A stretch of 38,064 bases of DNA from a virus (IMGVR_UViG_2526164598_000023); one strand, 5' to 3'. Positions 628 to 33,010 are shown, counted from the first letter of the stretch. Notes: a model not told the origin generated them from the sequence alone. Numbers and translations are program-made.

Positions 628-653
628 GAGAGATAAACGTTGGTTTGGGGGAA
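628..653. other. hix/gix-like 26-bp recombination site 1, inverted relative to sites 2 and 3
   Basis: Minus-strand reading is TTCCCCCAAACC-AA-CGTTTATCTCTC. Left half and core match the remembered hixL TTCTTGAAAACC-AA-GGTTTTTGATAA. It sits exactly at the boundary where homology between the fibre cassettes begins. Confidence 0.55.
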
Positions 654-771
654 GGCTCTGCACTGCCCGTTGGTGTGCCTGTTCCATGGCCCTCAGCCAC
701 ACCACCAACGGGCTGGCTGAAATGTAACGGTGCAGCATTTTCTTCTGAAATGTACCCCAATCTGGCAAAGG
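642..771 (+). repeat. About 130-bp block, near-identical inverted copy of 2070..2199
   Basis: Reverse complement of 642-771 matches 2070-2199 with a single mismatch by eye. The third copy (2584..2713) has about 8 mismatches. Confidence 0.8.
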
Positions 772-1120
772 CCTACCCCACCAATAAATTACCGGATTTA
801 CGCGGTGAATTTATCCGTGGCTGGGATGATGGGCGAGGAATTGATGCGGCACGCGCTTTATTGAGCATTCAAAACGGGATGTTGGAAAAACACCGCCATA
901 TTGTTGTAGCTAACGATGGATATGACACAAAAGATGAATGGGAGTTGGCTACGATTTTCAAAAAACATATACACAAGGCAGGGGGCTTGATGCCACAAAT
1001 ACAGGAGGGAGTTTGATTCCATCACCAACGCTTCATTCACGAGGAAGTATTGGTAACACAGGTGGTAGTGAAACCCGCCCCCGCAATATTGCATTTAACT
1101 ATATCGTGAGGGCGGCTTAG
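645..1120 (+). pseudogene. Silent tail-fibre C-terminal cassette V3, frame-disrupted
   Basis: Begins at the conserved block with no start codon of its own (in-frame TGA at 627-629). The conserved N-terminal part is in one frame (645..1016) and the conserved C-terminal end ETRPRNIAFNYIVRAA is in another (938..1120). An A6 run (960-965) and a G5 run (981-985) lie in the overlap. Confidence 0.55.
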
Positions 1121-1126
1121 TTATAT

Positions 1127-1738
1127 TCAACTGGCTGCTGCCAGTGGTATTTCCGGCAAGTTGATATCTGGTACCATGTTTATATCCATTGCGTTCAGCG
1201 CGTCTATATAATCCAGCACGGCATTAAGCCGGGTGGTTTCTGCCTGCGTCAACTTCCGCCCGGCCTGCAACTTCAACTGAATCAGACTTATGGAAGCCAT
1301 TGCCGCATCAGCCAGTGACTGGCGCTTGGTTTCTGCCGCTTCTACTGCGGCACGATGTTGTGCCTCAGTATCTGTCACCCATTTTTCACCATCCCATTTA
1401 TCGTATGGTGTTAACGGGGCGATAGTGGTTGTAGTTTTCGGGTAGTCACCCAGCGCCGTGATTTCTTCGGTGTTTCCCGTGTCAGTGCTATAGACGGTTT
1501 CACCACGATGGTCTGGCGCATACTCCCATGAACTTAAATTCTCCGAACGGCGGATAGCATAGCCCGCTTTATGTGCGCCCGGGGCATCTAAACAGGAATT
1601 TGCCGGAATACCGACACCCACAGCAAGATATTCAGTTGATTCGGAAATATATTCCCGTGTCTCACCATCATAGTTATAAACGACGATGTTTCCTGCCTGT
1701 ACGGCAATAAGGTCATCATTTAATATCGCGTTATTCAT
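1127..1738 (-). CDS. Tail fibre assembly protein (Tfa, Mu U / P2 G-like), 203 aa
   Basis: C-terminal region SLADAAMASISLIQLKLQAGRKLTQAETTRLNAVLDYIDALNAMD is the typical tail-fibre chaperone domain. Its ATG overlaps the V2 cassette stop as ATGA (1735-1738). Confidence 0.85.
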   Translation of the reverse strand: MNNAILNDDLIAVQAGNIVVYNYDGETREYISESTEYLAVGVGIPANSCLDAPGAHKAGYAIRRSENLSSWEYAPDHRGETVYSTDTGNTEEITALGDYPKTTTTIAPLTPYDKWDGEKWVTDTEAQHRAAVEAAETKRQSLADAAMASISLIQLKLQAGRKLTQAETTRLNAVLDYIDALNAMDINMVPDINLPEIPLAAAS

Positions 1739-2196
1739 AATGCGGTTCTCACAATATAATTGAAGGCAATATTGCGTGGGCGGTTTTCATTCCCATCTGA
1801 GGATTCCGTTCTGTATTGACTGGTAAATCTACCGTTAATTGCACCTTGCCGGACGGCGTTATCTGTCGACAACAGACTATCCCCTCTTTTGTCATTTGGC
1901 ACCAGTACCGTGTTATCCCACGCATCCCATGACCGAATATTATGATAATGACTTCCTGTTAACCACCCCTGCATGCTTAAGATGCCCCTTCCGGCATCCA
2001 CCCCGCGCCCATCATCCCAGCCACGGATAAACTCACCGCGTAAATCAGGTAATTTTAACGTTGGGTAAACCTTTGCCAGATTTGGGTACATTTCAGAAGA
2101 AAATGCTGCACCGTTACATTTCAGCCAGCCCGTTGGTGGTGTGGCTGAGGGCCATGGAACAGGCACACCAACGGGCAGTGCAGAGCCTTCCCCCAA
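1735..2196 (-). CDS. Silent tail-fibre C-terminal cassette V2 (no own ATG; first codon TTG inside hix-like site 2)
   Basis: Starts with the conserved block and ends NENRPRNIAFNYIVRTAL. Immediately follows the stop of the expressed fibre and is followed by tfa. Confidence 0.7.
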   Translation of the reverse strand: MGEGSALPVGVPVPWPSATPPTGWLKCNGAAFSSEMYPNLAKVYPTLKLPDLRGEFIRGWDDGRGVDAGRGILSMQGWLTGSHYHNIRSWDAWDNTVLVPNDKRGDSLLSTDNAVRQGAINGRFTSQYRTESSDGNENRPRNIAFNYIVRTAL

Positions 2197-2199
2197 ACC
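2070..2199 (-). repeat. About 130-bp block, near-identical inverted copy of 642..771
   Basis: See 642..771. Confidence 0.8.
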
Positions 2200-2213
2200 A
2201 ACGTTTTCATGCG
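2188..2213. other. hix/gix-like recombination site 2
   Basis: Plus strand TTCCCCCAAACC-AA-CGTTTTCATGCG. Contains the TGA stop of the expressed fibre (2207-2209) and the first codons of cassette V2. Confidence 0.55.
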
Positions 2214-3367
2214 GCTCTTACGATGTAATTAAATGCAACGTTGCGAGGGCGAGTTTCTGTACCTACATTTCCACTAATTTCACCAAACCGTCTTACATTA
2301 CGAGAGCTAATGGCTCGTAGTGAGGAAGGCACCTTTAAACCGGGTTCGTCTGTTTTAACTATTCCCCCGTCCCCGTATGTAGCCAGTATTCCAGGGTTTA
2401 CTCCTTCCCGTGTGCTTCCCGTGGCAAGTCCATCCCCGGTCCATAATTCCATATAGTGTGCATGATCCAAAATTGTGTGTGGCTGCCAATTAAGCAAAGC
2501 GCGGCCAGCATCCACCCCGCGCCCATCATCCCAGCCGCGAATAAATTCTCCCCGTAAATCCGGTAATTTATTGGCGGGGTAGGCCTTTGCCAGATTGGGG
2601 TACATTTCAGAAGAAAATGCTGCACCGTTACATTTCAGCCACCCCGTTGGCGGCGTGGCTGAAGGCCATGGAACGGGCACACCAACGGGCAGCGCCGAGC
2701 CTTCCCCTAAACCAAGGTAATTGAGGACTTCTTTTATACTGCCCATAGCGATAATAGCGCGACCAATAGCTGTAAGGGTTGTCAGTGCTGCGCGGTCTGC
2801 TCCGGTAAAATAAGGCAACCGATCTGCTGCAGTGGCAAGTCCTGCCAGAGCAGTGAGCGTGGCATCTGCCGGTTGTTTTCCGTTTGCCAGATCGTATGCA
2901 GCCTTGACCGCTTTCGGTGTGGCGGCCAGTATTTCAGACGTGCTGTTGATGTCACTGCTCAATTGTACGGTGCCTTTTGCCGTCAGCGAGGCAGCAGGCA
3001 CTCCCGTTATCTGACTCCACGGGTGAGTATGGCTGACGGGGGCCTTGCCGGCAGCCAGGTCATATGCAGCCTTGACGGCCTTTGGTGTGGCGGCCAGCGT
3101 TTCAGAGGTGCTGTTGGTGGCACTGCTCAGTTGGGTGAACCCCTTAGCTGTCAGTGTCGCGTCCGGGTGGTTACGGGAACGTACGTGTTCAGCCAGTGAC
3201 TGTGCGGCTTCCTCCGTTTTTTTCTTCAGCCATTTCGTCCTGTTTGCCAGTTGCCGGGGGGCTCGATTTGATATCCCGTCTGCACCACCCAGAACCGGAT
3301 CTGATGTCTCCAGTTGATAGATATTTTCTTCCCACTTTTCTGTTTCATTCAGGTTTCCCATAATCAA
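2207..3367 (-). CDS. Tail fibre protein (Mu S / P2 H-like), constant N-terminal part fused to cassette V1, 386 aa
   Basis: Contains P2 H-like repeats (HPDATLTAKGFTQLSSATNSTSETLAATPKAVKAAYDLA) and QPADATLTALAGLATAADRLPYFTG, then the conserved cassette block, and ends ETRPRNVAFNYIVRAA. Confidence 0.9.
   Translation of the reverse strand: MIMGNLNETEKWEENIYQLETSDPVLGGADGISNRAPRQLANRTKWLKKKTEEAAQSLAEHVRSRNHPDATLTAKGFTQLSSATNSTSETLAATPKAVKAAYDLAAGKAPVSHTHPWSQITGVPAASLTAKGTVQLSSDINSTSEILAATPKAVKAAYDLANGKQPADATLTALAGLATAADRLPYFTGADRAALTTLTAIGRAIIAMGSIKEVLNYLGLGEGSALPVGVPVPWPSATPPTGWLKCNGAAFSSEMYPNLAKAYPANKLPDLRGEFIRGWDDGRGVDAGRALLNWQPHTILDHAHYMELWTGDGLATGSTREGVNPGILATYGDGGIVKTDEPGLKVPSSLRAISSRNVRRFGEISGNVGTETRPRNVAFNYIVRAA
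2702..2727. other. hix/gix-like recombination site 3, at the constant/variable junction of the expressed fibre
   Basis: Plus strand TTCCCCTAAACC-AA-GGTAATTGAGGA. The central AAACCAAGGT is identical to the remembered hixL centre. Encodes ...LNYLGLGE. Confidence 0.6.
2885..3163 (-). repeat. Two tandem repeat units of about 108 nt inside the tail fibre gene, period 171 nt (57 codons)
   Basis: 2891-2950 and 3058-3120 are about 85% identical. They encode the two LTAKG..QLSS..NSTSE.LAATPKAVKAAYDLA units. Confidence 0.7.
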
Positions 3368-5430: not shown

Positions 5431-6027
5431 TCAGTGGGAGTGGTGGCTGGAGTTTTCGCCATCAGACAACATACTGCCCGTGGCATGGGCATTCCCTTTA
5501 ATCTCGATATTGCCATGGATGGTCGCGGTAACACCTTCACCACCAGAACCCGCCATGCCTCCTTCGTAAATCAGCTTACCCCTGACACGCAGATCTCCGG
5601 TAAGTTCGGTTTCCGGTGCGTCAATCGTGGCTTTCTGTGTTTTCAATACCACATCAGCACCACACTCAATGACAATATGCTCAATGCCGCCCCGGATGGT
5701 CAGAGTGTGCGTCTTCCGGTTGTAGCTGTACTCTGCACCATCAGCAAACCGGGTTCCCCGGATATTTTTGTCACTGAACGGTGGTTTATCGACGTCTGAA
5801 TACACCGCGCCCAGAATAACACCATCCTCGCCGTTGGCATCGAGCAGCACCTCAACCTGCTCCCCCACGTCAGGGAGCCAGTAATCTTTGTTATCCTGGG
5901 TATTGCGCTGCAGCACGTTAAGCCAGTTTGTGCGCAGGTTATCGCATTCAGGCAGACGAACGCGGGCCTGAACCCTGTCGGCATCAACGGCACTGACCGT
6001 ACCGACCTGACGAGTGACACCAGTCAT
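5431..6027 (-). CDS. Baseplate spike protein, gpV-like, 198 aa
   Basis: gpV-like size and position; His-rich C-terminal tip SSHHSH. Confidence 0.7.
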   Translation of the reverse strand: MTGVTRQVGTVSAVDADRVQARVRLPECDNLRTNWLNVLQRNTQDNKDYWLPDVGEQVEVLLDANGEDGVILGAVYSDVDKPPFSDKNIRGTRFADGAEYSYNRKTHTLTIRGGIEHIVIECGADVVLKTQKATIDAPETELTGDLRVRGKLIYEGGMAGSGGEGVTATIHGNIEIKGNAHATGSMLSDGENSSHHSH

Positions 6028-7178
6028 TTTTTCTTCTCCTTAATCACCGTCGATGTACTGCCATCCGGGTGATAAACCGTGAGTTTCTGAGTTTTTTGTT
6101 TTTTCCCTCTTGTGACTGGCCCCCGTGCCACTTCCAGCTCTGTGGTGTAGCCGCTGTTACGGTCAAACGCATGGCGGGCAGTGGTTATGAGCCATGGCCC
6201 GGATAACTGCCCAAAACCCACCAGTTCAATTTTGTTGCCTGCTGTCAGTTGAGGTGTTCCCGTCAGCGTCAGGGAGCCGTTCTGCTGGTATTCGTTATGT
6301 CTGGCCAGTGCTGAATCCGCTTTAATCCGGGCACTGTCCGGGTCGCTGACGCGGCTGTTAACTTTAAGTGAGTCAGCGCTGGTAACCTTACCACCTTTGA
6401 GCTTTTTGTCGCTTTCACGGGTACCACCATCAGCTTCGTAGACGATCAGTTTTTTACTGCTGCTTTTCTGGTGTTTTACCTTTGCAGATTTATAGACCCG
6501 GTTGATGGTGTCACGCAGGGAAAAGCGGGCCACATCCTGCGGTTTTAACTGCCTGACCGGCTCCTGACTGCGCAGTGTGGCCAGATGAGAAAAAATCAGC
6601 TGGTCACTGACCACTTTCACTGCATAACCATACTCGCTGGCCAGCCGGCGCAGAAAACCCACGTCGGTTTCAGCATACTGGGTCACCCGGTCGATTCTGA
6701 TGGACTCAATGCTGCCCACCAGTTTCAGTCGGTGCTTTCTGGCAATCCGCCCCGCAACAGCTGCCAGCGTGGTGTTCTCAAAACCACGACTGGTTTTAGT
6801 CCGCAGGGCACTGTTAACCGAGGTGGCCACCCCACGGATAGAAACAACGGAAGCGGGCGAACTCACTTCGATCTCGTCTATAGAGAACGTACCGCAGGAC
6901 AGCAGCTTCTCGCCCTGATAGCCCATTTTCAGCGTCAGCGTGTCACCCTTGCCCGGATACCATTTATCCAGCCAGCGGCCATCGGTGTCGTCCAGCTCCA
7001 CCTCAATGGTATCGGACTCATTTTTGATGTTATCGCTCCAGGTCACACGGGTGACATAAGGCGCGATATCAGAGGTGATGTTTTTCTGCAGATACCACAA
7101 AGTGAACACCGGTGTCAGCACATCGCTGACGCCGGTTAACGCTGATGTGACTTGCGCAGTGCTGTTTATCTCAGCCAT
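6024..7178 (-). CDS. Tail/baseplate hub protein, P2 gpD / Mu P (gp44)-like, 384 aa
   Basis: Position after the tape measure, N-like and X-like genes; size typical for gpD. Confidence 0.6.
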   Translation of the reverse strand: MAEINSTAQVTSALTGVSDVLTPVFTLWYLQKNITSDIAPYVTRVTWSDNIKNESDTIEVELDDTDGRWLDKWYPGKGDTLTLKMGYQGEKLLSCGTFSIDEIEVSSPASVVSIRGVATSVNSALRTKTSRGFENTTLAAVAGRIARKHRLKLVGSIESIRIDRVTQYAETDVGFLRRLASEYGYAVKVVSDQLIFSHLATLRSQEPVRQLKPQDVARFSLRDTINRVYKSAKVKHQKSSSKKLIVYEADGGTRESDKKLKGGKVTSADSLKVNSRVSDPDSARIKADSALARHNEYQQNGSLTLTGTPQLTAGNKIELVGFGQLSGPWLITTARHAFDRNSGYTTELEVARGPVTRGKKQKTQKLTVYHPDGSTSTVIKEKKK

Positions 7179-7381
7179 GGGGCAATATCCTCTTCTGTAC
7201 GGGCTTCTTCAGCCTCAATCACCGGGATCAGTAACAACAGCCCGGAGGGCAGCACCGGCGTGATGGCCACGTGCGGATTGGCGGCAATAATCCGGGGATA
7301 GCCCAGCGGGTCACCGTAGTACTGCCATGCCAGCGAATCCCAGCGCTCTCCGTCACGGGTAACATGTTCAAGAAACATCAC
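7166..7381 (-). CDS. Tail protein X-like (P2 gpX), 71 aa
   Basis: Pattern W..L...YYGD.......IAANP resembles the small gpX family. Confidence 0.5.
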   Translation of the reverse strand: MMFLEHVTRDGERWDSLAWQYYGDPLGYPRIIAANPHVAITPVLPSGLLLLIPVIEAEEARTEEDIAPWLR

Positions 7382-8262
7382 ACACTCCTCGTCAGTATTC
7401 TGGCGGCCATTGCACTTAATCCCGGAGACATGCGGTTGAATGCTGTGCCGGCGGCGTTAAGCTGCCCGGAAACGGTATCCAGAGCATCTGCAATATTTCT
7501 TTTGTCCACACCACTCAGCGCAGACTGTGCCTGCTGTACATACGTGGCTGCTTCGCTGGCTGTTCTGGCCAGACTGATGGCATCGGGCATGGATTCAGAG
7601 AGTGCGTTAAACGCCGGAACACTTTTCCCCAGAGCCCCGGAGATATTACCCAGTCCGCTCATCAGCCCCGGCACACGGGTCAGTGCGACAACGGGGTTAT
7701 CCTTCATTTTCTGTGTCACCCGAACGGCGCTGATAGTGGTCTGGAGTACAGACTGCGCCTGTTTCGCATAGTTGACGCCGTTGCGGATGAACTGCGCCAC
7801 CCCTGAAGGTGAAGGTATGGCACCGGAGACCGCCCCGACACCCGGGAGCTTCGTGCGTATTGCCGGTGGTTGCAGAGGATTTTTCGGGTCACCGGTGTAT
7901 TCCCGGAGAGACACGGTGGCACTGACAGCCAGCACGTTGCCGGTACTGTCAGTCTGCTCGCTGGTTGCAGTCACATCGGTAATCACGAACCAGCCGCGAT
8001 AGTCACCGTTGCCGAAGACCAGCGCCAGTGCCTGATGGGCTTTCATGGCTGTTCGCAGTCTCGCCAGCTCCACATCGGGTACACAATAATGCTGATGGAA
8101 AACCAGAGTTATCTGGATTTCGTCCAGCCTGTCGCCGACGAACTGCAGGCCAGGCTTACCCCCGATGCGGGCATGCTCCGCATAATCGACGCCGAACGTG
8201 GCCTCGAAGCCGTCCCAGTAGGTAATCAGCTCAAACTCAATATCACCCAGTACGGCAAACAT
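7378..8262 (-). CDS. Tail protein, Mu N / P2 gpU-like (DNA circularisation protein family), 294 aa
   Basis: Immediately downstream of the tape measure; N-terminus MFAVLGDIEFEL. Confidence 0.5.
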   Translation of the reverse strand: MFAVLGDIEFELITYWDGFEATFGVDYAEHARIGGKPGLQFVGDRLDEIQITLVFHQHYCVPDVELARLRTAMKAHQALALVFGNGDYRGWFVITDVTATSEQTDSTGNVLAVSATVSLREYTGDPKNPLQPPAIRTKLPGVGAVSGAIPSPSGVAQFIRNGVNYAKQAQSVLQTTISAVRVTQKMKDNPVVALTRVPGLMSGLGNISGALGKSVPAFNALSESMPDAISLARTASEAATYVQQAQSALSGVDKRNIADALDTVSGQLNAAGTAFNRMSPGLSAMAARILTRSV

Positions 8263-10952
8263 CAGCGGTACTCCTTACGTTGTTTCTGAGCCAGCAGACG
8301 CTCCAGCATTTTTTCCAGCTCATGCAGACTCATATTCAGGGCACCAGTCAGTCCTGCAGGCGCTGTGGTTTCCCTGCCATTGAGGAAAAACTGAGGATTA
8401 AAGCTGACCTGGATACCACCAGACGTTCCACCGCCGGTTGCAGCTGCACCACGGCCTGAATATCCGGCAGCCAGGATTTCAGGCGAGGGGATACGGGGAA
8501 CATCCGGTGTCATCTCATTTGCCAGACGTTGCCCTGGTAAAATCGATGCCCGGGTGGAGAGCGGAATAGCGGGCATGGAAGACAAACTATTGATTACGGC
8601 TCCGATCGCATTTTTAGCAGACGACATAAACCCATTGATATCGGGCAACGGCATACTGAAGCGAACACCTGAAGTGTTATCCCGTATTTCTGGCCCCTGG
8701 ATGCTCACGGGCATTCTGGGGAGCAGTTCACTGGCCATTCGCTGCCCGGCCAGAGCTGCAAGCGGAGTGGTCCGCTGCAGGCCAATGGCGGCCCCCTGCG
8801 CGATATTGTCACCAAAGCCCATAAACACGCGGCTCGGCGAATGAATGCCCAGCTTTTCGCTGAACCAGCCACTGATGCTGTCACCCATTCCGGTTACACT
8901 GGATTTGAGCGACTCCCATTTGTTTTTGATACCGTTAATCAGACCATCGACAAGATGGCCACCGAAGTCGGTAAACTTTGCCGGCAGATCAACACCAAGA
9001 TATTTCAGCGCAGCTGCAAAGGCTTTATAGAGCAGGCCTGCCGGCGACCAGTTAATCAGTAACTTACCAATTCCCACAATGCCGCCGTTAAAGGCTTCCT
9101 GAATGTCTGCCCAGCGCTGTTTAAACCAGCCACTGACTGCCCCCCAGTTGCGGTAGATAAGGTAAGCTGCTGCCGCGACAGCGGTGATAACGAGACCGAT
9201 GGGATTCATCATCAGCGCACGTCCAATCCAGAGAACAGCACGTCCGGCGAGCATAATTCCGCGAACCAGCCCCTCGGAGAGCACGCCACTCAGTGTTCTG
9301 GCTCCTCTGGCGACGGCGCTAAATCCGGTCACCAGCCAGCGGAGCTTACCGCCTTGCCCCAGTGCGAGCGACAGACGAAGCCAGTTGGCCCGAAGTAAAA
9401 CAGCATTTTTCCAGACACTTACAAAGGGGGAAATAAGGAGATTCAGCCCCAGTTTGAGACCAACAGTCGCTATCTTAATCGCAAGGAGCGCACTGATGAG
9501 CTTAAAAGCCCCACTGACAAATTGCGGGTGAGTCGCTACCCAGTGTTTTGCCCCCTGAATGAGTGGAAGCAGTTCCTGAGTCAAAGAAATAAAAGATGGA
9601 GCTAATTGATCGCCCAGCGTAATTGCCAGATCGCGACTGCTGACCATAAGTGTTTTAGTGGCTTCAAGGGGAGATTTCAGCCGCTGATCATAAGCACTGG
9701 CAAGCAAATCGTTATCCGCAGCCCTGAGAGCACCGGCACGGATCTCTCGATATCTGTCCATGTTGGCCAGCATCGGGCGGATAAATGCCATGACCTGCAT
9801 ATCCGCGAACATATCGCCCAGACCAAAGTTTTTCGCCAGAGCCTGAAGTGCCTCATCTCTTGCCGTATCATTCTTTATTTTCATGGCTGATTTGAAGCCG
9901 GCCAGCGCTTCGGGGCTTTTGGCATTGAGGTAACGTTCTATAACACTCAACATCCCTTCAATCGGAGAGATCCCCGCAGCTTTATAACTCGCAATAGATC
10001 CCTGCAAATCAATACCCAGATCAGCAAACTGTTTCTGAGTATCGCGGGCAAAAATTTTGGTAAGAAAGTTTTTAAAATTATTGGCTGCTTCGTCGGTGGA
10101 ACCTGCACCGATTTTTGCTATCTGGAGACTGGCCCCGATTTCAGCAACAGCCTCTTTTCCACTGGCAATACCCGCCATCATTGGGGCCAGGGACTGCATC
10201 CACTTGACCTGATCCGGGATTTCAAATGACCCCTGGTCACCGGCATAAGCCATAATATTCTGAACGGCACCAAAATCTCTGGCCGCACCTTTCAGGGAGT
10301 TTTGCCAGACTGCGGCCACTTTTGCCCAGTCCTGAGCAGACGTGCGTGTTGCCGTTGCCGCGCGGGCAATATCCGGCATCAGAAAACCGATATCTGACAC
10401 ATTATCAATATTGTCGCTGATGAGTGAACCCACCGCCTCCTGCAGCTCATCCTGATACTGATTGTATTTAAGCGCCCAGCCTTTTATCTGTCCGGCAAGT
10501 CCATCCCGCGTTTTATTGTCATATTTTGCGGTGATCGACATATCAATCATTTTGTCCTGAAAAGACATGGACTGCTGAACGGCAGGGGAAACCGTATGAT
10601 AAACAGTCTGTGCCATGCCATACGCTTCAATCCCCTGACCATACAGCGCCATGCGGTTAGCTTTCAGCGCATCACTGGTAGCGGATGCCGCTGACAGACG
10701 GCGCTGCTGGCGCTCAATTTGCTCCATGGTGCGGCTTACCCGCAGCAGCTCGCTGTTGAGATGCTGCATCCGGGAAGAACCCAGTTGACCATAACGTTCT
10801 GTTGCACGGGTTAAAGCGTTCTGACGTTCCTGCAGGCGGCGTGAGGTATCGCTCAGGGAATCAAGCGCACGGCGGGTACCGCTCATTGCAGAACGGAATG
10901 TGCTACCAATCATCCCGCCGATAACAACGCCGACTGAAAACTGTCCCGACAT
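8262..10952 (-). CDS. Tail tape measure protein, 896 aa
   Basis: Very long, Ala/Gln-rich N-terminal part and hydrophobic central segments; directly downstream of the frameshifted chaperone pair. Confidence 0.8.
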   Translation of the reverse strand: MSGQFSVGVVIGGMIGSTFRSAMSGTRRALDSLSDTSRRLQERQNALTRATERYGQLGSSRMQHLNSELLRVSRTMEQIERQQRRLSAASATSDALKANRMALYGQGIEAYGMAQTVYHTVSPAVQQSMSFQDKMIDMSITAKYDNKTRDGLAGQIKGWALKYNQYQDELQEAVGSLISDNIDNVSDIGFLMPDIARAATATRTSAQDWAKVAAVWQNSLKGAARDFGAVQNIMAYAGDQGSFEIPDQVKWMQSLAPMMAGIASGKEAVAEIGASLQIAKIGAGSTDEAANNFKNFLTKIFARDTQKQFADLGIDLQGSIASYKAAGISPIEGMLSVIERYLNAKSPEALAGFKSAMKIKNDTARDEALQALAKNFGLGDMFADMQVMAFIRPMLANMDRYREIRAGALRAADNDLLASAYDQRLKSPLEATKTLMVSSRDLAITLGDQLAPSFISLTQELLPLIQGAKHWVATHPQFVSGAFKLISALLAIKIATVGLKLGLNLLISPFVSVWKNAVLLRANWLRLSLALGQGGKLRWLVTGFSAVARGARTLSGVLSEGLVRGIMLAGRAVLWIGRALMMNPIGLVITAVAAAAYLIYRNWGAVSGWFKQRWADIQEAFNGGIVGIGKLLINWSPAGLLYKAFAAALKYLGVDLPAKFTDFGGHLVDGLINGIKNKWESLKSSVTGMGDSISGWFSEKLGIHSPSRVFMGFGDNIAQGAAIGLQRTTPLAALAGQRMASELLPRMPVSIQGPEIRDNTSGVRFSMPLPDINGFMSSAKNAIGAVINSLSSMPAIPLSTRASILPGQRLANEMTPDVPRIPSPEILAAGYSGRGAAATGGGTSGGIQVSFNPQFFLNGRETTAPAGLTGALNMSLHELEKMLERLLAQKQRKEYR

Positions 10953-18034: not shown

Positions 18035-18856
18035 TTATCCTCTCAGTTCCTGTTGTGCCAGTGGCTGAAGCGTACCCTGATAGCGGGCCAGGTCGGGACG
18101 GTATGCTGCCCCCGGTGCATAAGACCAGCCGACGTCGGTGGTCACCTTCGTGGTGCCGGTATTAAAGGTGGCCACGTTCCGCATTTCGCCGGTTTTCTCT
18201 GAGACCAGTTTCAGTTCCTGGCCCATGGCAGAGCCGGAGCTGATAACCTTCAGGCCACGGGCACGTACATCCGCCGCACTCAGGGCAATCACACTACAGC
18301 GGCAGCGCCAGCCGTTCGGCGGGTAAAATGCCTGCCAGAACGGGTCATCCCAGCGCAGCACCAGACCATGCAGCGCCAGATGGCTCCTGCGGGTATGGCT
18401 GTCGTTGATGCCGGTATACATCCAGTACGGCCTGTCGTCGACGTTTTCCATCTGTTCCGCCCAACGACCGGCGCTGTAGAGTACGGACATATTGGTGCGA
18501 AAGATGGTATCGAGCCGCCACGGACTGCCCTGCTGAATGGTGACTGGCTCACCCGTTACCGGGTCAGTCGTGTCACGTGGTCCCCACCATCCCTTACGCT
18601 TCAGCACCGGCTCCAGCTCCTGCCGGAACCAGCGATCGGTTTTTCCTTCATCGACAGCCTGCTGCAGTGCCCCGCGAATATCTTCCAGGATATCCAGGCG
18701 GGTCACTTTAGCAACGGTAAAGGCGCGGGCATGGGCCTCCTGCCACATTTCTTCCCAGTCCCAGGTAATCTGATACCCTTTGGACTTCAGGTAGTTGATT
18801 GCCCGCTTCGGGGGAAGCGTCATGCAGTACGCCAGTTCAGCCGTTGTCACGCTCAT
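18035..18856 (-). CDS. Head morphogenesis protein (Mu F-like), 273 aa
   Basis: Contains NGWRCRC; follows the portal gene. Start uncertain because it overlaps the portal end. Confidence 0.6.
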   Translation of the reverse strand: MSVTTAELAYCMTLPPKRAINYLKSKGYQITWDWEEMWQEAHARAFTVAKVTRLDILEDIRGALQQAVDEGKTDRWFRQELEPVLKRKGWWGPRDTTDPVTGEPVTIQQGSPWRLDTIFRTNMSVLYSAGRWAEQMENVDDRPYWMYTGINDSHTRRSHLALHGLVLRWDDPFWQAFYPPNGWRCRCSVIALSAADVRARGLKVISSGSAMGQELKLVSEKTGEMRNVATFNTGTTKVTTDVGWSYAPGAAYRPDLARYQGTLQPLAQQELRG

Positions 18857-20333
18857 GCAGACGCCCCCAGATATTTGTCACAAAGAGAATGCGGGCCAGC
18901 CGCTCCTGCAGATCGTCCGTGTTCATCTGAGGGTAGAGCTCCGCCAGTTCGCCCAGCAGCTCAGACGGGTTAACCCCATTTTCGACCCGCCTGAACAGAG
19001 GTGCCAGGACGGGTTCCAGCGTGCCATTTAACGCGCCTCCGTTCATCAGAATGTCCAGCGCGTCGTCAAGCTGCTGCTGAGCCTGAATATCAGCATCAAT
19101 CGCCTCGGCAAATGACAGCGGCAGCATGTTATTCTGTCGTTCCGACGGTGGTGTCTCGTCAATATCGCCGTCCTGCAGTTGGTACTCACGCTTGAAGTAC
19201 TGCGGGGTCAGACGCAGACCCGCCCGGGTGAGTTTTTCGTCGCGGGTGGCACGGGTGTCATCAATGGCCTCCTGTTCCCACATGGCCCAGACCGGACACG
19301 GCACATCGCCGAAGTTCAGGGTGACCACCGTTCTGATGACCTGATTCACTGCCGCCTGAATGATGTCCGCATCCGCATCGCGGATATCAGCCGTTACCTC
19401 CAGCCCGGCCTGTGCAGAGGCCTTGTTACTGTTCGCTTCCGTGGTCTGATTCTGACCGAGTAATGCAATGGAGATCTCACTGCGTGACAGTGTGATCAGC
19501 TCGCGGAATACCTCGCTGCTGTCCGCCTTACCATCCGCGGCTTTGAGTTCGATGCTGCTGTCATCGGGGATGGCGGCCACCGCGTCCTCCACCATCTGCT
19601 CCATGGAGTCCAGCAGTTTTTCAATCTCTGCATCATTTGCACCCCTCGGGTGCTTACCGATCACCCACGGGGAGCCAAACTTTTCGGCAAAGCGGAGCCA
19701 GAATTTCATCCCGCCTTTCTTGAAGGCGACCGGCCAGAAGCACATGGACAGGTCCGGGAAACCGTAAGGATTGTCATACGAGGCATCCTGTGCCGGCACC
19801 ACGAATTTTGACGGTGACAGCAGCTCACCCTCCACACCCGCATCACGCGCCCGGAAGCGCAGGCAGTTGTCCGTATCAAACTGAAACCACTCAGGCGGTT
19901 TGCCGACAATATCCGTCACCGCCCACGACCTGACCGAACGGCCCCACATGATTTCACAGGGCTGATACCCGTAGAGCACGGCATCGCTCATTTCACCGAT
20001 GATGCGGGACAGATCCAGATCGTCGAGCATGTCGCGGATGAAACGGAAGACCCGGGCAGAGGCGTGACCACGCTCCAGTCCACGCTCCAGCGATTTAAGC
20101 GCTGCTTTACGTCTGCGGATACAGCCCCCGACCAGCGGGTCGGTGCGCAGTTCGCGGTAGATACGGATATCCCGTCCCTGAGCCTTGAGAATGGGATCAG
20201 GATTGGGCAGATACATGCCCAGTCCGTAAAAGTCGATCGCGCGGCTGCGGGAGGCAATCTGCGCGGTCAGTGATTTCTGAGGCTCAGAAAAAGCAACAAA
20301 TTCATCGGGTGAAACCCAGATACCCCTCGCCAT
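18837..20333 (-). CDS. Portal protein (Mu gp29-like), 498 aa
   Basis: Size and position immediately after the terminase large subunit. Confidence 0.7.
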   Translation of the reverse strand: MARGIWVSPDEFVAFSEPQKSLTAQIASRSRAIDFYGLGMYLPNPDPILKAQGRDIRIYRELRTDPLVGGCIRRRKAALKSLERGLERGHASARVFRFIRDMLDDLDLSRIIGEMSDAVLYGYQPCEIMWGRSVRSWAVTDIVGKPPEWFQFDTDNCLRFRARDAGVEGELLSPSKFVVPAQDASYDNPYGFPDLSMCFWPVAFKKGGMKFWLRFAEKFGSPWVIGKHPRGANDAEIEKLLDSMEQMVEDAVAAIPDDSSIELKAADGKADSSEVFRELITLSRSEISIALLGQNQTTEANSNKASAQAGLEVTADIRDADADIIQAAVNQVIRTVVTLNFGDVPCPVWAMWEQEAIDDTRATRDEKLTRAGLRLTPQYFKREYQLQDGDIDETPPSERQNNMLPLSFAEAIDADIQAQQQLDDALDILMNGGALNGTLEPVLAPLFRRVENGVNPSELLGELAELYPQMNTDDLQERLARILFVTNIWGRLHERDNG

Positions 20334-27034: not shown

Positions 27035-28042
27035 TTAAACCTCAGTCATCCACATTTCCCTAAATTCTTCAGGTACATTACGTAGGGTGATAATATTTGT
27101 TTCCGGATCATAATCAATATAGCCTTCAGTTTTCCCTTCCCGGTCAAACTTAAGTTCCCAATATTTAGACTTGCCTTTAAAAGATACCAGAGCCCGAATG
27201 ACTCGACCATCAGGAACGAAGCCATCCGATAACTCCAACTCTTCAGCAGCAAGTTTACCAGATAACTCCTCGGGAGCCTGGGGCCAAATGGCATTAACAA
27301 GGGTTTCAAGACTAAGTGGTTCACCAGCCTTACTTAGTGCATGTAAGTGTTCAAACGCACTCTTAAGAAATGCATCTTTTTCAGCGCCGTCAAGTCCTTT
27401 CTCTGCCGCAAATGCTTTTAAAACGTCACGTAACTTTTCAGACTCTCGTTTGGCGATTAAGACATCATTACAGCCGAGGAACTGTTTAAAATAGTTTGAA
27501 ACATTACCTTGCCCCTTAAGAAAACTGATATAGCGCTCTGCGCCACTTTCCCACGCGGTTAAGTCAATGCGCCCAGCCATACGCAGCTTAGCAATATCAA
27601 GATAGGTACTATCTTGGATGTTAAAATCATCTGTGACAGTGGATCCAATGGTAGCGCTTACAATAGCTATCAACAGGTGTTCATTGTGTCCTATCACGAT
27701 ATTTGCAAAAAGAACATAACCACCAGTAGCCATGTTTTCTCGCTGAGAACGTTCCGTCAGGTGATGCATCATTCGGCAGGAACTTTGGTAGAAATCATCA
27801 ACACCTTCGAGAAAGTCCCCAGCCATTCGTTCCATAGGATAGTTATCCGTATCGCCTTCAAAATAGCCATAACCTTTACCTGTGCGTCCTGCATATTTTG
27901 CACAAATATCGTTTATAAGGCGCTGGGAGGCTTCAGTAACTAGACCTTCTTCAGGACTCAATCTCTCAGAAGCGTCTCCATTTTGTTGTTTGTCTAAAAT
28001 GTGAACTACAACGTGTTTAACTTCAATGGTCTGCTCAGACAT
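27035..28042 (-). CDS. NdpA/YejK-like nucleoid-associated protein homologue, 335 aa
   Basis: Segments GGYVLFANI..HLLIAIVS, YLDIAKLRMAGRIDLTAWESGAERYISFLKGQ and the C-terminal YIDYDPETNIITLRNVP resemble E. coli YejK as I remember it; same length (335 aa). ATG 28040-28042 with AAGGTGGA RBS. Confidence 0.65.
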   Translation of the reverse strand: MSEQTIEVKHVVVHILDKQQNGDASERLSPEEGLVTEASQRLINDICAKYAGRTGKGYGYFEGDTDNYPMERMAGDFLEGVDDFYQSSCRMMHHLTERSQRENMATGGYVLFANIVIGHNEHLLIAIVSATIGSTVTDDFNIQDSTYLDIAKLRMAGRIDLTAWESGAERYISFLKGQGNVSNYFKQFLGCNDVLIAKRESEKLRDVLKAFAAEKGLDGAEKDAFLKSAFEHLHALSKAGEPLSLETLVNAIWPQAPEELSGKLAAEELELSDGFVPDGRVIRALVSFKGKSKYWELKFDREGKTEGYIDYDPETNIITLRNVPEEFREMWMTEV

Positions 28043-29148: not shown

Positions 29149-30060
29149 ATGGGACGCACCAAATCACCGGTTAGCACTGAACTGAACGTCGAGGTACCGC
29201 TGTCGGATGATCTCAATGTCAGTCTAAACGCCATGACACAGCATCGCATGGAAATCATGCAACAGTTCGGCGATGGTCTGCCCTATGAGCGCGATCGTGT
29301 TGTCCATGAGGCACGCTTTTATATGGCACAGAGCGCTGAGGCCATGCTGGAGGCAGGTAAGCGGCTGATAATCCTTAAGGAAAATGAACCACACGGGGAG
29401 TTTATAAAGATTCTTGAAAGTGAGTTGGGGCTGGCATACCGGACATCTGTGAGAATGATGCAAGCATCGACAAAATACTTATCCCCGGCGCTGAAACCAA
29501 ATGTGCCAACGTTGGCACATTTGGGAAAAGCCAAACTTTTCGAATTAATGACAGAAGACGACGAAGAGCTTGCCGAACTGGCCGACGGCGGCACAGTTGC
29601 CGGCCTGACGCTTGACGACGTTGATCGCATGTCAGTACGTGAATTGCGTCAGGCCCTGCGCGAAGCGCGCGAAACCAACGCAGCACAACAGCGCGTACTC
29701 GCTGACAAAAATGAAAAAATAGACTCACTCTCCACCAGACTGGAGAAGAAATCCCGTATTCAGCCGCCTGAGCCTGATGAAGAGGTTAAGAAGCTGCGGG
29801 CGGAAGTGACAGCATTAGCGGTTGAGGCGGAATCTGCTATCGCCGTTCGACTGTCCAGCGCTTTTGAGACGCTGTGCGCATATTGTGCTGAAAACATGAT
29901 TGATACCCCCAGAGACTTCATGGCAGGCCTGGTCTGTCAACTGGAAAGCACAGCGCGTAGCCTGCGCTCCACATTTGACCTGCCGGATGAGCCAACAGGC
30001 AATGCCGCGCCTTCATGGCTGACTGAGCCGACGCCACAGATTAACGGGCTGGAGGCATAA
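29149..30060 (+). CDS. Hypothetical protein, 303 aa
   Basis: ORF between the wHTH gene and the transposase; no recognised catalytic motif. Confidence 0.5.
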   Translation: MGRTKSPVSTELNVEVPLSDDLNVSLNAMTQHRMEIMQQFGDGLPYERDRVVHEARFYMAQSAEAMLEAGKRLIILKENEPHGEFIKILESELGLAYRTSVRMMQASTKYLSPALKPNVPTLAHLGKAKLFELMTEDDEELAELADGGTVAGLTLDDVDRMSVRELRQALREARETNAAQQRVLADKNEKIDSLSTRLEKKSRIQPPEPDEEVKKLRAEVTALAVEAESAIAVRLSSAFETLCAYCAENMIDTPRDFMAGLVCQLESTARSLRSTFDLPDEPTGNAAPSWLTEPTPQINGLEA

Positions 30061-30063
30061 CCA

Positions 30064-31833
30064 ATGAATGCTGCCCTGACTGAACGACTGGTTTATGTCG
30101 CCCGCGCGGCACGTGACGCGGGGCATGGTAAACGCGGTGCAATATACGACGCTGCCTGTGCTGAACTTGGCATGTCCCGCGCCACTCTGCTGCGCAGGCT
30201 GAAGGAGGTCTCTGTGACTGATAAACGCAAAAAACGCGCTGATGCCGGACGCAGCGCCCTGACCCGCGACGAAGCCGCGCTGATATCTGCCACACTGCGT
30301 GAGGCCACCCGCAAGAACGGTAAGCGTCTCTATTCCATCGCGGATGCAGTGGAAACCCTGCGGGCTAACGGCTTTATCTCCGCAGGCAGAACAGATGAAA
30401 CCACCGGTGAGTTTTTCCCGTTGTCCGAAGATGCCATCAGTCGTGCCCTGCGTAACTATGGCCTGCACCCGGAACAACTGGATGCTCCTGCGCCGCATAC
30501 CGAAGTGGCCAGTCTGCATCCCAATCATGTCTGGCAGATTGATGCCTCGCTCTGCACGCTTTACTACCTGAGCAATGGACACAAAGGGCTGCAGGTGATG
30601 GACAGCGCGAAGTTCTACAAGAACAAACCCGCTAACCTTGCCCGTATCGCCAGTGACCGCGTGTGGAGTTACGAGATTACCGACCATGCCAGCGGCTGGA
30701 TTTACGTTGAGTATGTGACGGGTGCGGAATCCGGTGAGAACCTGTGTTCTGTGCTTATCAACGCCATGCAGGAGCGTGGCGGCGCAGACGTGCTGCACGG
30801 CGTGCCAAAAATACTCTATCTCGACCCCGGTTCGGCAAACACCGCGGGTATGACGAAAAACATGTGCCGCTCACTGGGCATTGACCTGATAGCGCACAAG
30901 CCGCATAACGCCCGCGCCACCGGACAGGTGGAAAAGGCGCGTGACATTATCGAACGCAAGCTGGAGCCGGGTCTGAAGTTCCGGCCGGTTCACAGTCTGG
31001 AAGAACTCAACGCGCTGGCCGCGAAATGGCGCAGCCACTTTAACGCCACGGCTGTTCACAGCCGCCACGGTAAAACCCGCACGGATATCTGGCTGAAGAT
31101 TACTGCTGAGCAGCTGAAAAAAGCGCCTTCCGTTGAGGTATGTCGTGAACTGGCTGTGGCGGCACCAGAACTCCGCAAAGTCACGCCAAAACTTCGTGTC
31201 TCGTTCCGGGGCACTGAATTTGACGTATCAACGGTACCGGGCGTACTGGTCGGTGAAAAACTGATGATTACCCGTAACCCGTGGCGCAGCGATGTGGCAC
31301 AGGTGGTTCTGACCGGTGAGGACGGCCACGAGACGTTCTTCCTGGTCGAAGAGGTCAGAAAGAACGAGTTTGGCTTTGCTGAAGGCGCGGCGGTATTTGG
31401 CGAAAGTTACAAAGCCCTGCCGGAAACCCCGGCGCAGATGGCGGCAAAAGAAACCGAAGCGCTGGTCACCGGTACAGACAACGCCGCAGATGCAGCTGCC
31501 GCACGCAAGGCGAAGGCGCTGCCGTTCGGCGGGCGGCTTGACCCGTATAAACATATTGATGACGCCACACTTCCGGCCTATATGCCGAAGCGAGGTCAGG
31601 CCTCTGACGTACGCGGACCGCGCACTGAACAGCGTCCCATGACTCATGTGGAGGCCGCGAAAGCCCTGCGCGGGAAGTTCAGCGCCAACGGCCTTACCTG
31701 GACGCCGGAACATTACCGCCAGTTAACGGCACAGTACCCGGACGGCGTACCGGAAGCCGCACTGGATGAAGTCATGGCCACGCTGACCACGCCGGCCCGC
31801 AGCAGTGTTATCAGCATTGTTAACGGCAACTGA
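30064..31833 (+). CDS. DDE transposase (Mu A-like), 589 aa
   Basis: Candidate DDE residues in HVWQIDAS, ILYLDPGSANTAG and ATGQVEKARD; N-terminal HTH-like region; followed by an AAA+ gene. Confidence 0.8.
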   Translation: MNAALTERLVYVARAARDAGHGKRGAIYDAACAELGMSRATLLRRLKEVSVTDKRKKRADAGRSALTRDEAALISATLREATRKNGKRLYSIADAVETLRANGFISAGRTDETTGEFFPLSEDAISRALRNYGLHPEQLDAPAPHTEVASLHPNHVWQIDASLCTLYYLSNGHKGLQVMDSAKFYKNKPANLARIASDRVWSYEITDHASGWIYVEYVTGAESGENLCSVLINAMQERGGADVLHGVPKILYLDPGSANTAGMTKNMCRSLGIDLIAHKPHNARATGQVEKARDIIERKLEPGLKFRPVHSLEELNALAAKWRSHFNATAVHSRHGKTRTDIWLKITAEQLKKAPSVEVCRELAVAAPELRKVTPKLRVSFRGTEFDVSTVPGVLVGEKLMITRNPWRSDVAQVVLTGEDGHETFFLVEEVRKNEFGFAEGAAVFGESYKALPETPAQMAAKETEALVTGTDNAADAAAARKAKALPFGGRLDPYKHIDDATLPAYMPKRGQASDVRGPRTEQRPMTHVEAAKALRGKFSANGLTWTPEHYRQLTAQYPDGVPEAALDEVMATLTTPARSSVISIVNGN

Positions 31834-31843
31834 GGAGGAAAAC

Positions 31844-33010
31844 ATGCTGGTACTGAAGCAGCAACTGAAAGAGGCCCGTATTTCACAGGCGGTGGTGGCG
31901 AGAGCTGTCGATGTTTCTGAGGCCACGCTGGCCCAGATTGTGAATCATAACGCGTGGCCCCGCACCAGCCCCGGAGAAGTGCGCCGGCGTCTTGCGTCCT
32001 GGCTGGAAAGTCAGGGGATTGATACAGCGAAGAGTTTTGATGCTGTACAGGGCGCGGCCACGCCCCGTACATCGGGTACCACAGATAAAACGAGCCTCAG
32101 TGAGGAAGAGAATATGTTACTCAAAAAACAGGTGTTATTTCCAGCAACCAAAAAAGCGTTTGGTCTTTTCCGTGACCCGTTCGCCGACGAAGCCATGCAG
32201 GGTTCTGATGATGTGTTCACCACCCCGGACATTCGCTACGTGCGTGAGGCGTTGTACCAGACAGCACGTCATGGTGGGTTTATGGCCGTCATCGGTGAGT
32301 CCGGTGCGGGTAAATCCACGCTGCGCCGTGACCTGACTGAACGTATCAACCGCGAGAATGCGCCAGTGATTGTTATCGAGCCATACATCATCGCTATGGA
32401 AGACAACGATGTGAAAGGGAAAACTCTGAAGGCAGCAGCGATTGCCGAAGCCATTATCAGTACCATCGCACCACTGGAAAGCATCAGACGCAGTCAGGAC
32501 GCCCGCTTTCGCCAGTTGCATCGCGTCCTGAAAGACAGCAGCCAGGCGGGGTTCAGCCACGTTCTGGTGATTGAGGAGGCCCACAGTCTGCCCATTCCGA
32601 CACTGAAACACCTCAAACGCTTTTTTGAGCTGGAGTCCGGTTTCAAAAAACTGCTGTCCATCGTGCTAATTGGTCAGCCGGAACTGGCGACAAAACTGTC
32701 TGAACGCAATATGGAAGTCCGTGAAGTCGTTCAGCGCTGTGAGGTGGTCGAACTTCTGCCTCTGGACAATAACCTTGAAGAATTTCTGACGTTCAAACTG
32801 CAACGGGCCGGTAAACAACTGACGGACATTATGGACGCCAGCGCAGTGGATGCCATACGTGCCCGCCTGAGCAATCCGGGAAGTCATCGTAAAAATATGG
32901 TCAGCCTGCTGTATCCGCTGGCCGTCAGTAACCTGGTAATAGCCGCCATGAATCTGGCTGCTGAAATCGGGGTTCCACAGGTCAACGCTGACGTTGTCAA
33001 AGGGGTTTAA
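31844..33010 (+). CDS. Transposition ATPase (MuB-like AAA+), 388 aa
   Basis: Walker A GESGAGKST and Walker B VLVIEEAH; start placed at ATG 31844 with GAGGAGGA RBS. Confidence 0.8.
   Translation: MLVLKQQLKEARISQAVVARAVDVSEATLAQIVNHNAWPRTSPGEVRRRLASWLESQGIDTAKSFDAVQGAATPRTSGTTDKTSLSEEENMLLKKQVLFPATKKAFGLFRDPFADEAMQGSDDVFTTPDIRYVREALYQTARHGGFMAVIGESGAGKSTLRRDLTERINRENAPVIVIEPYIIAMEDNDVKGKTLKAAAIAEAIISTIAPLESIRRSQDARFRQLHRVLKDSSQAGFSHVLVIEEAHSLPIPTLKHLKRFFELESGFKKLLSIVLIGQPELATKLSERNMEVREVVQRCEVVELLPLDNNLEEFLTFKLQRAGKQLTDIMDASAVDAIRARLSNPGSHRKNMVSLLYPLAVSNLVIAAMNLAAEIGVPQVNADVVKGV

Follow-up and report, generated by a model that had tools for sequence, protein, structure and literature searches.

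Why should two of the three copies of a short block in one tail-fibre locus be almost the same, and the third diverged? The locus lies in a 38,064-nt stretch of viral DNA (IMGVR_UViG_2526164598_000023), the whole of which we call the window and from whose first letter all coordinates are counted. A sequence-only reading had matched the reverse complement of 642-771 to 2070-2199 with one mismatch and to 2584-2713 with about eight, and exact comparison bears these figures out: over 130 nt the first pair differs once (at 758 / 2083), the first and third copies differ at 8 positions, and the second and third at 9. Two explanations had been put forward, namely exchange at two of three sites in preference to equal use of all three, or gene conversion. 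We find that the near-identity is probably the product of a recent non-reciprocal homologous exchange (gene conversion) between the inverted heads of two cassettes, V3 and V2, in a multiple-inversion switch of the Gin/Cin type.

The prophage and its tail-fibre locus

The window is a Mu-like transposable prophage of Escherichia coli. It encodes a DDE (rve) transposase (30064-31833, + strand), an AAA ATPase (31805-33010, +) and a Mu-type portal (18837-20333), and the phage/host junction lies at about 36793, where the host gene mtr starts with 100% identity to E. coli; relatives are inserted at many different genes. The early region with transposase and ATPase (29149-33010) is on the + strand and the structural and late genes (1 to about 25000) are on the - strand, and these opposite reading directions set the window apart from phage Mu, in which early and late genes are not opposed in this way. 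A full-length homologue of the 37-kDa nucleoid-associated protein family (27035-28042, -; Pfam NA37, E = 1e-80) is an unusual cargo for a Mu-like phage.

At the very start of the window, with its stop codon forming the first three bases, lies the gene for a 190-residue serine DNA invertase of the Gin/Cin type (1-573, -; Pfam Resolvase and HTH_7). The protein is 73% identical to P1 Cin and matches the "DNA-invertase" chains of PDB entries 3UJ3 and 4M6F (E = 1e-92 to 2e-93), which we take to be Mu Gin; a small serine recombinase of the invertase subfamily adjoins the invertible DNA, as in the Din family (Gin, Cin, Pin, Hin, and Min). Din-family switches have a Fis-dependent recombinational enhancer near the start of this gene. 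Over its first 120 nt the window's gene aligns at 87% mean column identity with the stretch of P1 cin that bears the inversion-enhancer annotation, a likeness that coding constraint explains equally well. A tyrosine-recombinase shufflon of the R64 type (Rci, with sfx-type 19-bp repeats) was considered and rejected because the recombinase is a serine invertase; the locus works like a shufflon and is not a member of that class.

Three 26-bp crossover sites can be read from the sequence. The invertase-proximal site s3 (628-653, core 640-641) is GAGAGATAAACG-TT-GGTTTGGGGGAA; the middle site s2 (2188-2213, core 2200-2201) reads CGCATGAAAACG-TT-GGTTTGGGGGAA on the - strand, as does s1 (2702-2727, core 2714-2715), which adjoins the constant part of the fibre gene, with TCCTCAATTACC-TT-GGTTTAGGGGAA. 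Sites s1 and s2 form a direct repeat, with s3 in the opposite orientation, and the length of 26 bp, the 2-bp core and the inversion of the outermost pair are those of Din-family switches, among which Hin uses two 26-bp sites and an enhancer (PMC3798978). The P1 site cix, CAATCCTAAACC-TT-GGTTTAAGAGAA, matches the window sites in its TT core and right half-site, where GGTTTAAGAGAA is near-identical to GGTTT[G/A]GGGGAA; s1 is one base off here, with GGTTTA against GGTTTG in the other sites.

Each block is the conserved 5' head (Phage Tail Collar domain) of a cassette, and the cassettes are alternative C-terminal ends for a single tail-fibre gene; copy A (642-771) belongs to cassette V3, copy B (2070-2199) to V2 and copy C (2584-2713) to V1. 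The constant N-terminal part of the gene, Sc (2716-3367, -; two Pfam Phage_fiber_2 matches and a Collar match), is now fused in frame to V1 (2207-2713, -), and the whole expressed fibre ORF (2207-3367, -) encodes 386 residues. The V1 stop codon (2207-2209) lies inside the left half-site of s2, and the conserved C-terminal coding end of V1 lies in or adjoins that half-site (2202-2213). Sc carries two 168-nt tandem fibre repeats that are 78% alike (2877-2986 and 3045-3154); ST131-type relatives L039 and L042 have three shaft repeat units, so that copy number varies.

Cassette V2 (1735-2199, -) consists of a head from 2199 to about 1985 and a variable body, with a Collar-domain ORF part at 1735-2196 (-) recognised by Pfam. 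Its stop is overlapped by tfa (1127-1738, -; Pfam Caudo_TAP, E = 9e-31), the tail fibre assembly (chaperone) gene, which has the same orientation as V2 and is the sole chaperone gene in the locus. Cassette V3 (642-1120, +; ORF part 645-1120) has a head from 642 to about 860 followed by a variable body, and is annotated in relatives as an intact 477-nt ORF; in the window an A run has lost one base (A6 at 960-965, against A7 in relatives L001 and L005) and the reading frame shifts. Unless this is a homopolymer sequencing error, the fibre of an isomer that joins Sc to V3 would be truncated. By ORFs and Pfam matches, the constant 5' part thus lies outside the invertible segment and the alternative 3' parts and the chaperone lie inside it, as in Din-family switches. 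Head and 3' end are conserved in every cassette (the inverted repeats I3 and I4). A cassette is a module that runs from right half-site through head, body and conserved 3' end to left half-site, and this build accounts for the tandem stacks of cassettes in other loci.

Inversion isomers and the use of the three sites

Three sites so arranged allow four isomers, among which the serine invertase shuffles the three cassettes, and all four are found in nature. State 1 (Sc-V1 / V2 tfa V3') is that of the window, state 2 (Sc-V1 / V3 tfa' V2') occurs in L005, state 3 (Sc-V3 tfa' V2' / V1') in L048 and L064, and state 4 (Sc-V2 tfa V3' / V1') in L001, L002, L003, and L019. Because four isomers among near-identical prophages need recombination at s1 x s3, s2 x s3 and s1 x s2, natural variation among relatives, as distinct from an experiment on this strain, shows that all three sites are used. 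With three sites, overlapping segments and more than two isomers, the locus has the makeup of a multiple-inversion system.

The junctions tell where the exchange takes place. The 3' end of V1 is joined to V2 in the window and to V3 in L001, L002, and L005, and Sc is joined at s1 to V2 in L001-L003 and L019 and to V3 in L048 and L064. Comparison of these junctions shows that sequence upstream of TT keeps its position and that GGTTT onward travels with the cassette. The switch falls exactly at TT, which places the crossover at the 2-bp core, as is usual for enzymes of this family, and means that each head moves intact with its cassette. V1, together with its GGTTTA site, is found at either outer position among near-identical relatives.

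Inversion also changes the setting of the chaperone gene, which runs in the direction of the fibre operon in states 1 and 4 and antisense to it in the other two; a co-transcribed chaperone would be lacking for V3, and for V1 in state 2. The same one-chaperone layout is seen in P2-like relatives.

Isomers and junctions together speak against the first of the two initial explanations, preferred exchange at two sites, by which s3 and s2 would be recombined far more often than s1 and repeated exchange would keep their flanks alike. The one-base difference in s1 could in principle change affinity, and two inversions at a homologous three-site locus of strain E2348/69 behaved differently when measured (PMC4272514). 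However, the four isomers take in every pairing of the three sites in near-identical relatives, heads stay with their cassettes as the junctions switch at TT, and in other loci that also invert the heads differ at 6-17 positions. Serine invertases, moreover, cut and rejoin DNA at a fixed 2-bp core and do not copy the flanking DNA, so site use cannot homogenise heads, and we regard the explanation as exceedingly improbable.

The shared head of V3 and V2

Within the window, the likeness of V3 and V2 takes the form of a perfectly identical inverted tract of 123 nt (635-757 on the V3 side, the reverse complement of 2084-2206 on the V2 side), which begins 7 nt upstream of the head, within the crossover site, and stops at head nt 115. 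Had A and B diverged as A and C or B and C have, the probability of one mismatch or fewer in 130 nt would be 0.001-0.0025. The eight differences specific to V1 (window positions 2708, 2696, 2693, 2675, 2663, 2654, 2651, and 2642; head nt 5-71) are all synonymous third-codon changes, and the 43 encoded residues are the same in the three copies; as the differences are all silent, protein constraint cannot explain the A/B identity. Silent sites vary, at all of the positions, in V1 and in dozens of other heads, and a 123-nt tract of identity that is bounded by divergence and runs across sites free to vary is what gene conversion would leave. The tract ends at the exact end of a 44-nt stretch (nt 72-115) that is identical in all heads.

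Over the whole conserved head of about 220 nt, by contrast, the pairs are about equally alike (90%, 91%, and 88%); past nt 116, V2 has a distinctive stretch, and V3 is there closer to V1 than to V2. The unequal homogenisation is limited to the first ~120 nt of the head, so the original picture of V3 and V2 homogenised and V1 diverged holds over that length (1 difference against 8-9) and is lost over ~220 nt. A second conversion, suggested by the similarity of V3 and V1 at head nt 130-176, was rejected since the shared state is the majority in most heads and the V2 of this lineage is the odd one. The head differences, being few, silent and haplotype-like, appear to give no reason to suspect a diversity-generating retroelement or another mutagenic mechanism. 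Recombination tests confined to the window, among them a walk over the informative sites of the three sequences, are borderline (longest-run permutation p = 0.013, max-chi2 permutation p = 0.068), with too few informative sites to decide, so the argument moves to the relatives, where the strong evidence lies.

Related loci, about 60 in all, were gathered from E. coli genomes, IMG/VR and metagenomes, and their cassettes were typed by body. An exact 26-mer scan of a species-representative genome collection gave no matches, a degenerate head pattern found only 6 short loci, and a metagenome scan yielded 11, mostly short. The pattern used to find heads passed over the cassettes of the ST131-type relatives L039-L044, which have a second head family. 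Across the gathered loci V2-tfa-V3 forms a conserved convergent module, and V1 and about 14 further cassette types are single-headed and stacked, up to 8 per locus. The head haplotypes form a mosaic and assort independently of the cassette bodies. The cassettes circulate in Mu-like, P2-like and P1-like elements and occur at a median of 2 and up to 26 places in an E. coli genome.

The V3 head usual in these loci (L021, L024, L025, L027, and L029) differs from that of the window at nt 5, 8, 38, 44, 52, and 56. L024 has the same V2 head as the window beside an unconverted V3 head (6 differences), and L013 has that V2 head beside a V3 head converted only to nt 51 (2 differences), and in both the V3 body differs from the window's by only 2-3 nt. 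Of 5,426 complete E. coli genomes, only 4 contain the window-type V3 head without a mismatch (100%); in the other carriers the match is at most 98.5%. Comparison with relatives thus shows the homogenised V3/V2 state to be derived and restricted to a lineage, and the second of the initial explanations, gene conversion, gains support from the rarity of the tract and from the occurrence of one and the same V2 head beside unconverted and part-converted V3 heads. The V1 head haplotype stays with V1 in other phage backbones (L004 and L006), which is how it would look if V1, as the sequences indicate, has simply retained its own older head haplotype.

Similar homogenisation has happened elsewhere. 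The V2 and V3 heads of L019, a locus of the same Mu-like family, are 1 nt apart and share another haplotype, with six changes in both copies; the different haplotype of this pair means at least one further V2/V3 conversion. V2 and V3 are likewise homogenised in L008 and L031, yet with other haplotypes again. Whether the same pair is homogenised in relatives, the check proposed at the outset, therefore has a divided answer: it is in L019, L008, and L031, but most of the sampled loci have 6-17 differences between the two heads over 118 positions. Of 24 distinct configurations, 6 have convergent partners on either side of tfa that are near-identical (no more than 3 differences over 118 nt), against 8 of 152 other within-locus pairs (Fisher p = 0.005, with configurations that share ancestry taken as independent). 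The remaining 18 of the 24, with 6-17 differences, make V2/V3 homogenisation sporadic, not the rule. These pair statistics call for caution over L007, an IMG/VR contig in which 5685-9305 holds mirror-image duplicate cassettes (T3, V1, V3 / V2, V1, T3) and which is probably an assembly of mixed isomers; some other IMG/VR contigs, too, may be misassemblies of isomer mixtures.

A conversion of another pair is seen in strain E30 (L001; NZ_CM143888.1, region 2286670-2287180), whose V1 head equals its own V2 head over about 205 nt; DLI.5a (L002), otherwise near-identical to it, still has the diverged V1 head. Neither strain shows a change in V2, so the exchange was non-reciprocal and its donor lay in cis. 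The chimeric V1 head of E30 is a singleton in 5,426 genomes, and it could be a polishing artefact in a repeat. Conversion tracts tend to begin at the crossover site, covering head nt 0-51 in L013, 0 to at least 56 in the window and 0-205 in E30.

In the reading that we prefer, gene conversion between the inverted heads, V2 would have overwritten V3 along a tract that starts at the crossover-site end and stops at some point from head nt 57 to 116. Taking V2 as donor and V3 as recipient is most parsimonious, and parsimony is the argument for this direction, given that the haplotype the two share is also carried by other cassettes (V3 in L007, V1 in L008, and L032). In every isomer the V2 and V3 heads form, in inverted orientation, the two ends of a single invertible segment (V2-tfa-V3) and lie about 1.5 kb from each other, and this may be the reason why the pair is prone to conversion. 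Recombination would proceed through host RecA or a phage function. Conversion set off by the invertase itself, through abortive double-strand cleavage at a site and repair from the synapsed partner head, would agree with tracts that begin at the crossover site and with the preference for heads at the two ends of a segment, and seems to us quite doubtful; if true, it would make the switch self-homogenising.

Two other accounts have to be set against gene conversion. The V3 (or V2) body might have come in from a different prophage or a plasmid through two homologous crossovers, one in head nt 72-115 and the other in tfa or the conserved 3' end, in which case the start of the head would be resident and its identity inherited from an older duplicate. 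Such replacement is unlikely, although much about these elements would permit it: Mu-like, P2-like and P1-like elements carry the same cassettes, with several copies per E. coli genome, every cassette offers a conserved head and 3' end (I3, I4) for crossing over, the A/B identity stops exactly where the universal 44-nt stretch ends, and haplotypes assort independently of bodies across loci. But the donor of the exact V2-specific sequence in E30, as compared with DLI.5a, lies in the same locus, the six changes present in both V2 and V3 of L019 need copying between the two and not the import of a body, and replacement still requires an earlier event that made both heads identical. It is less likely still that nothing special took place and that the identity reflects chance, selection on the head at the DNA level (for instance on a cis-acting element) or an error of assembly or polishing. 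Repeats that invert are difficult to assemble, and the homopolymer frameshift in V3 may be a sequencing error; against this, the probability under chance is as low as given above, silent sites vary freely in V1 and dozens of heads, and six independent assemblies (L001, L002, L003, L005, L048, and L064), one of them labelled a complete genome, have these same V2 and V3 heads.

Comparison with known inversion systems

The system is already known in kind, as a multiple-inversion tail-fibre switch, and its novelty is low. One of the closest likenesses is to the C segment of P1 (Cin/cix), where, beside the related invertase and the same TT core, the constant fibre part is likewise outside the segment and the variable parts and chaperone inside it, and where a 636-nt inverted repeat (98%, as measured here) lies immediately inside cix and encodes the start of both variable parts. 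Near-identical heads at both ends of a segment are, by this repeat, an established feature of the family. In P1, sites, cassettes and chaperone genes (U and U') number two each; the window has three each of sites and cassettes, a single chaperone gene and four isomers, and its identical tract is only 123 nt, with a third head that has diverged; to the P1-type layout it adds a third, single-headed cassette with a head of its own. The G segment of Mu (Gin/gix) is similar in belonging to a Mu-like transposable phage, in having the invertase at the genome end and in the match to the PDB Gin structures. Mu differs in having two sites, an inverted repeat of only 41 nt (measured), two chaperones, a TC core in place of TT and a different fibre family.

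A P2-like prophage of the enteropathogenic E. coli strain E2348/69 has three partially homologous inverted repeats and two overlapping inversions, and sequencing and PCR revealed four coexisting variants with three alternative C-termini (Goldberg et al. 2014, PMC4272514). The large inversion was steady between samples, at about 90% forward, and the small one varied widely (PMC4272514). The analysis in that paper covers inversions, variants and C-termini, to which comparison with the window adds the homogenisation of heads. We take this module to be our locus L034, a matching of our own that is absent from the paper. L034 shares with the window the V2-tfa-V3 module and the head family, and it differs in its P2-like backbone, its constant part and invertase flank, and its third cassette, which is T4 instead of V1.

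Plasmid p15B has six sites and many more isomers than the window, and is likened to it here by description, not by sequence. The p15B system, cited as Min (PMC6906374), and P1-like plasmids resemble the window in having a Din-family invertase, three or more crossover sites, and single-headed cassettes arranged in a stack. In L010 and L011 the present head family reaches up to 8 heads per locus.

Conserved cassette heads would serve as patches of homology that allow host-range modules to be copied and reshuffled, both inside the Mu-like, P2-like and P1-like elements of E. coli and from one to another. For the reading of such loci this carries a caution: similarity of inverted repeats reports homologous exchange and not the frequency with which the invertase uses a site. 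The practical yield is a fully mapped three-site, four-isomer switch in a Mu-like prophage, complete with sites, cassettes and chaperone and with a natural example of every isomer, and its importance beyond annotation is small.

Two further observations concern the relatives with the second head family. L039-L044 (ST131-type, e.g., EC958 1003806-1012790) belong to the same Mu-like family, which several hundred E. coli genomes contain, many ST131 strains among them, and carry that head family at the same crossover sites; they have three cassettes in isomers that differ between strains, with one head pair 94% alike against 85-86%. In one of them, L040 (NZ_CP023849.1 999666-1008650, from E. coli strain 4/0), the cassettes and constant part that belong to the Mu-like prophage are directly abutted, in opposite orientation, by a "tail protein I" gene of P2-like type and a fibre gene, with no invertase gene between them, which looks like a rearrangement between the invertible regions of two prophages, or a misassembly.
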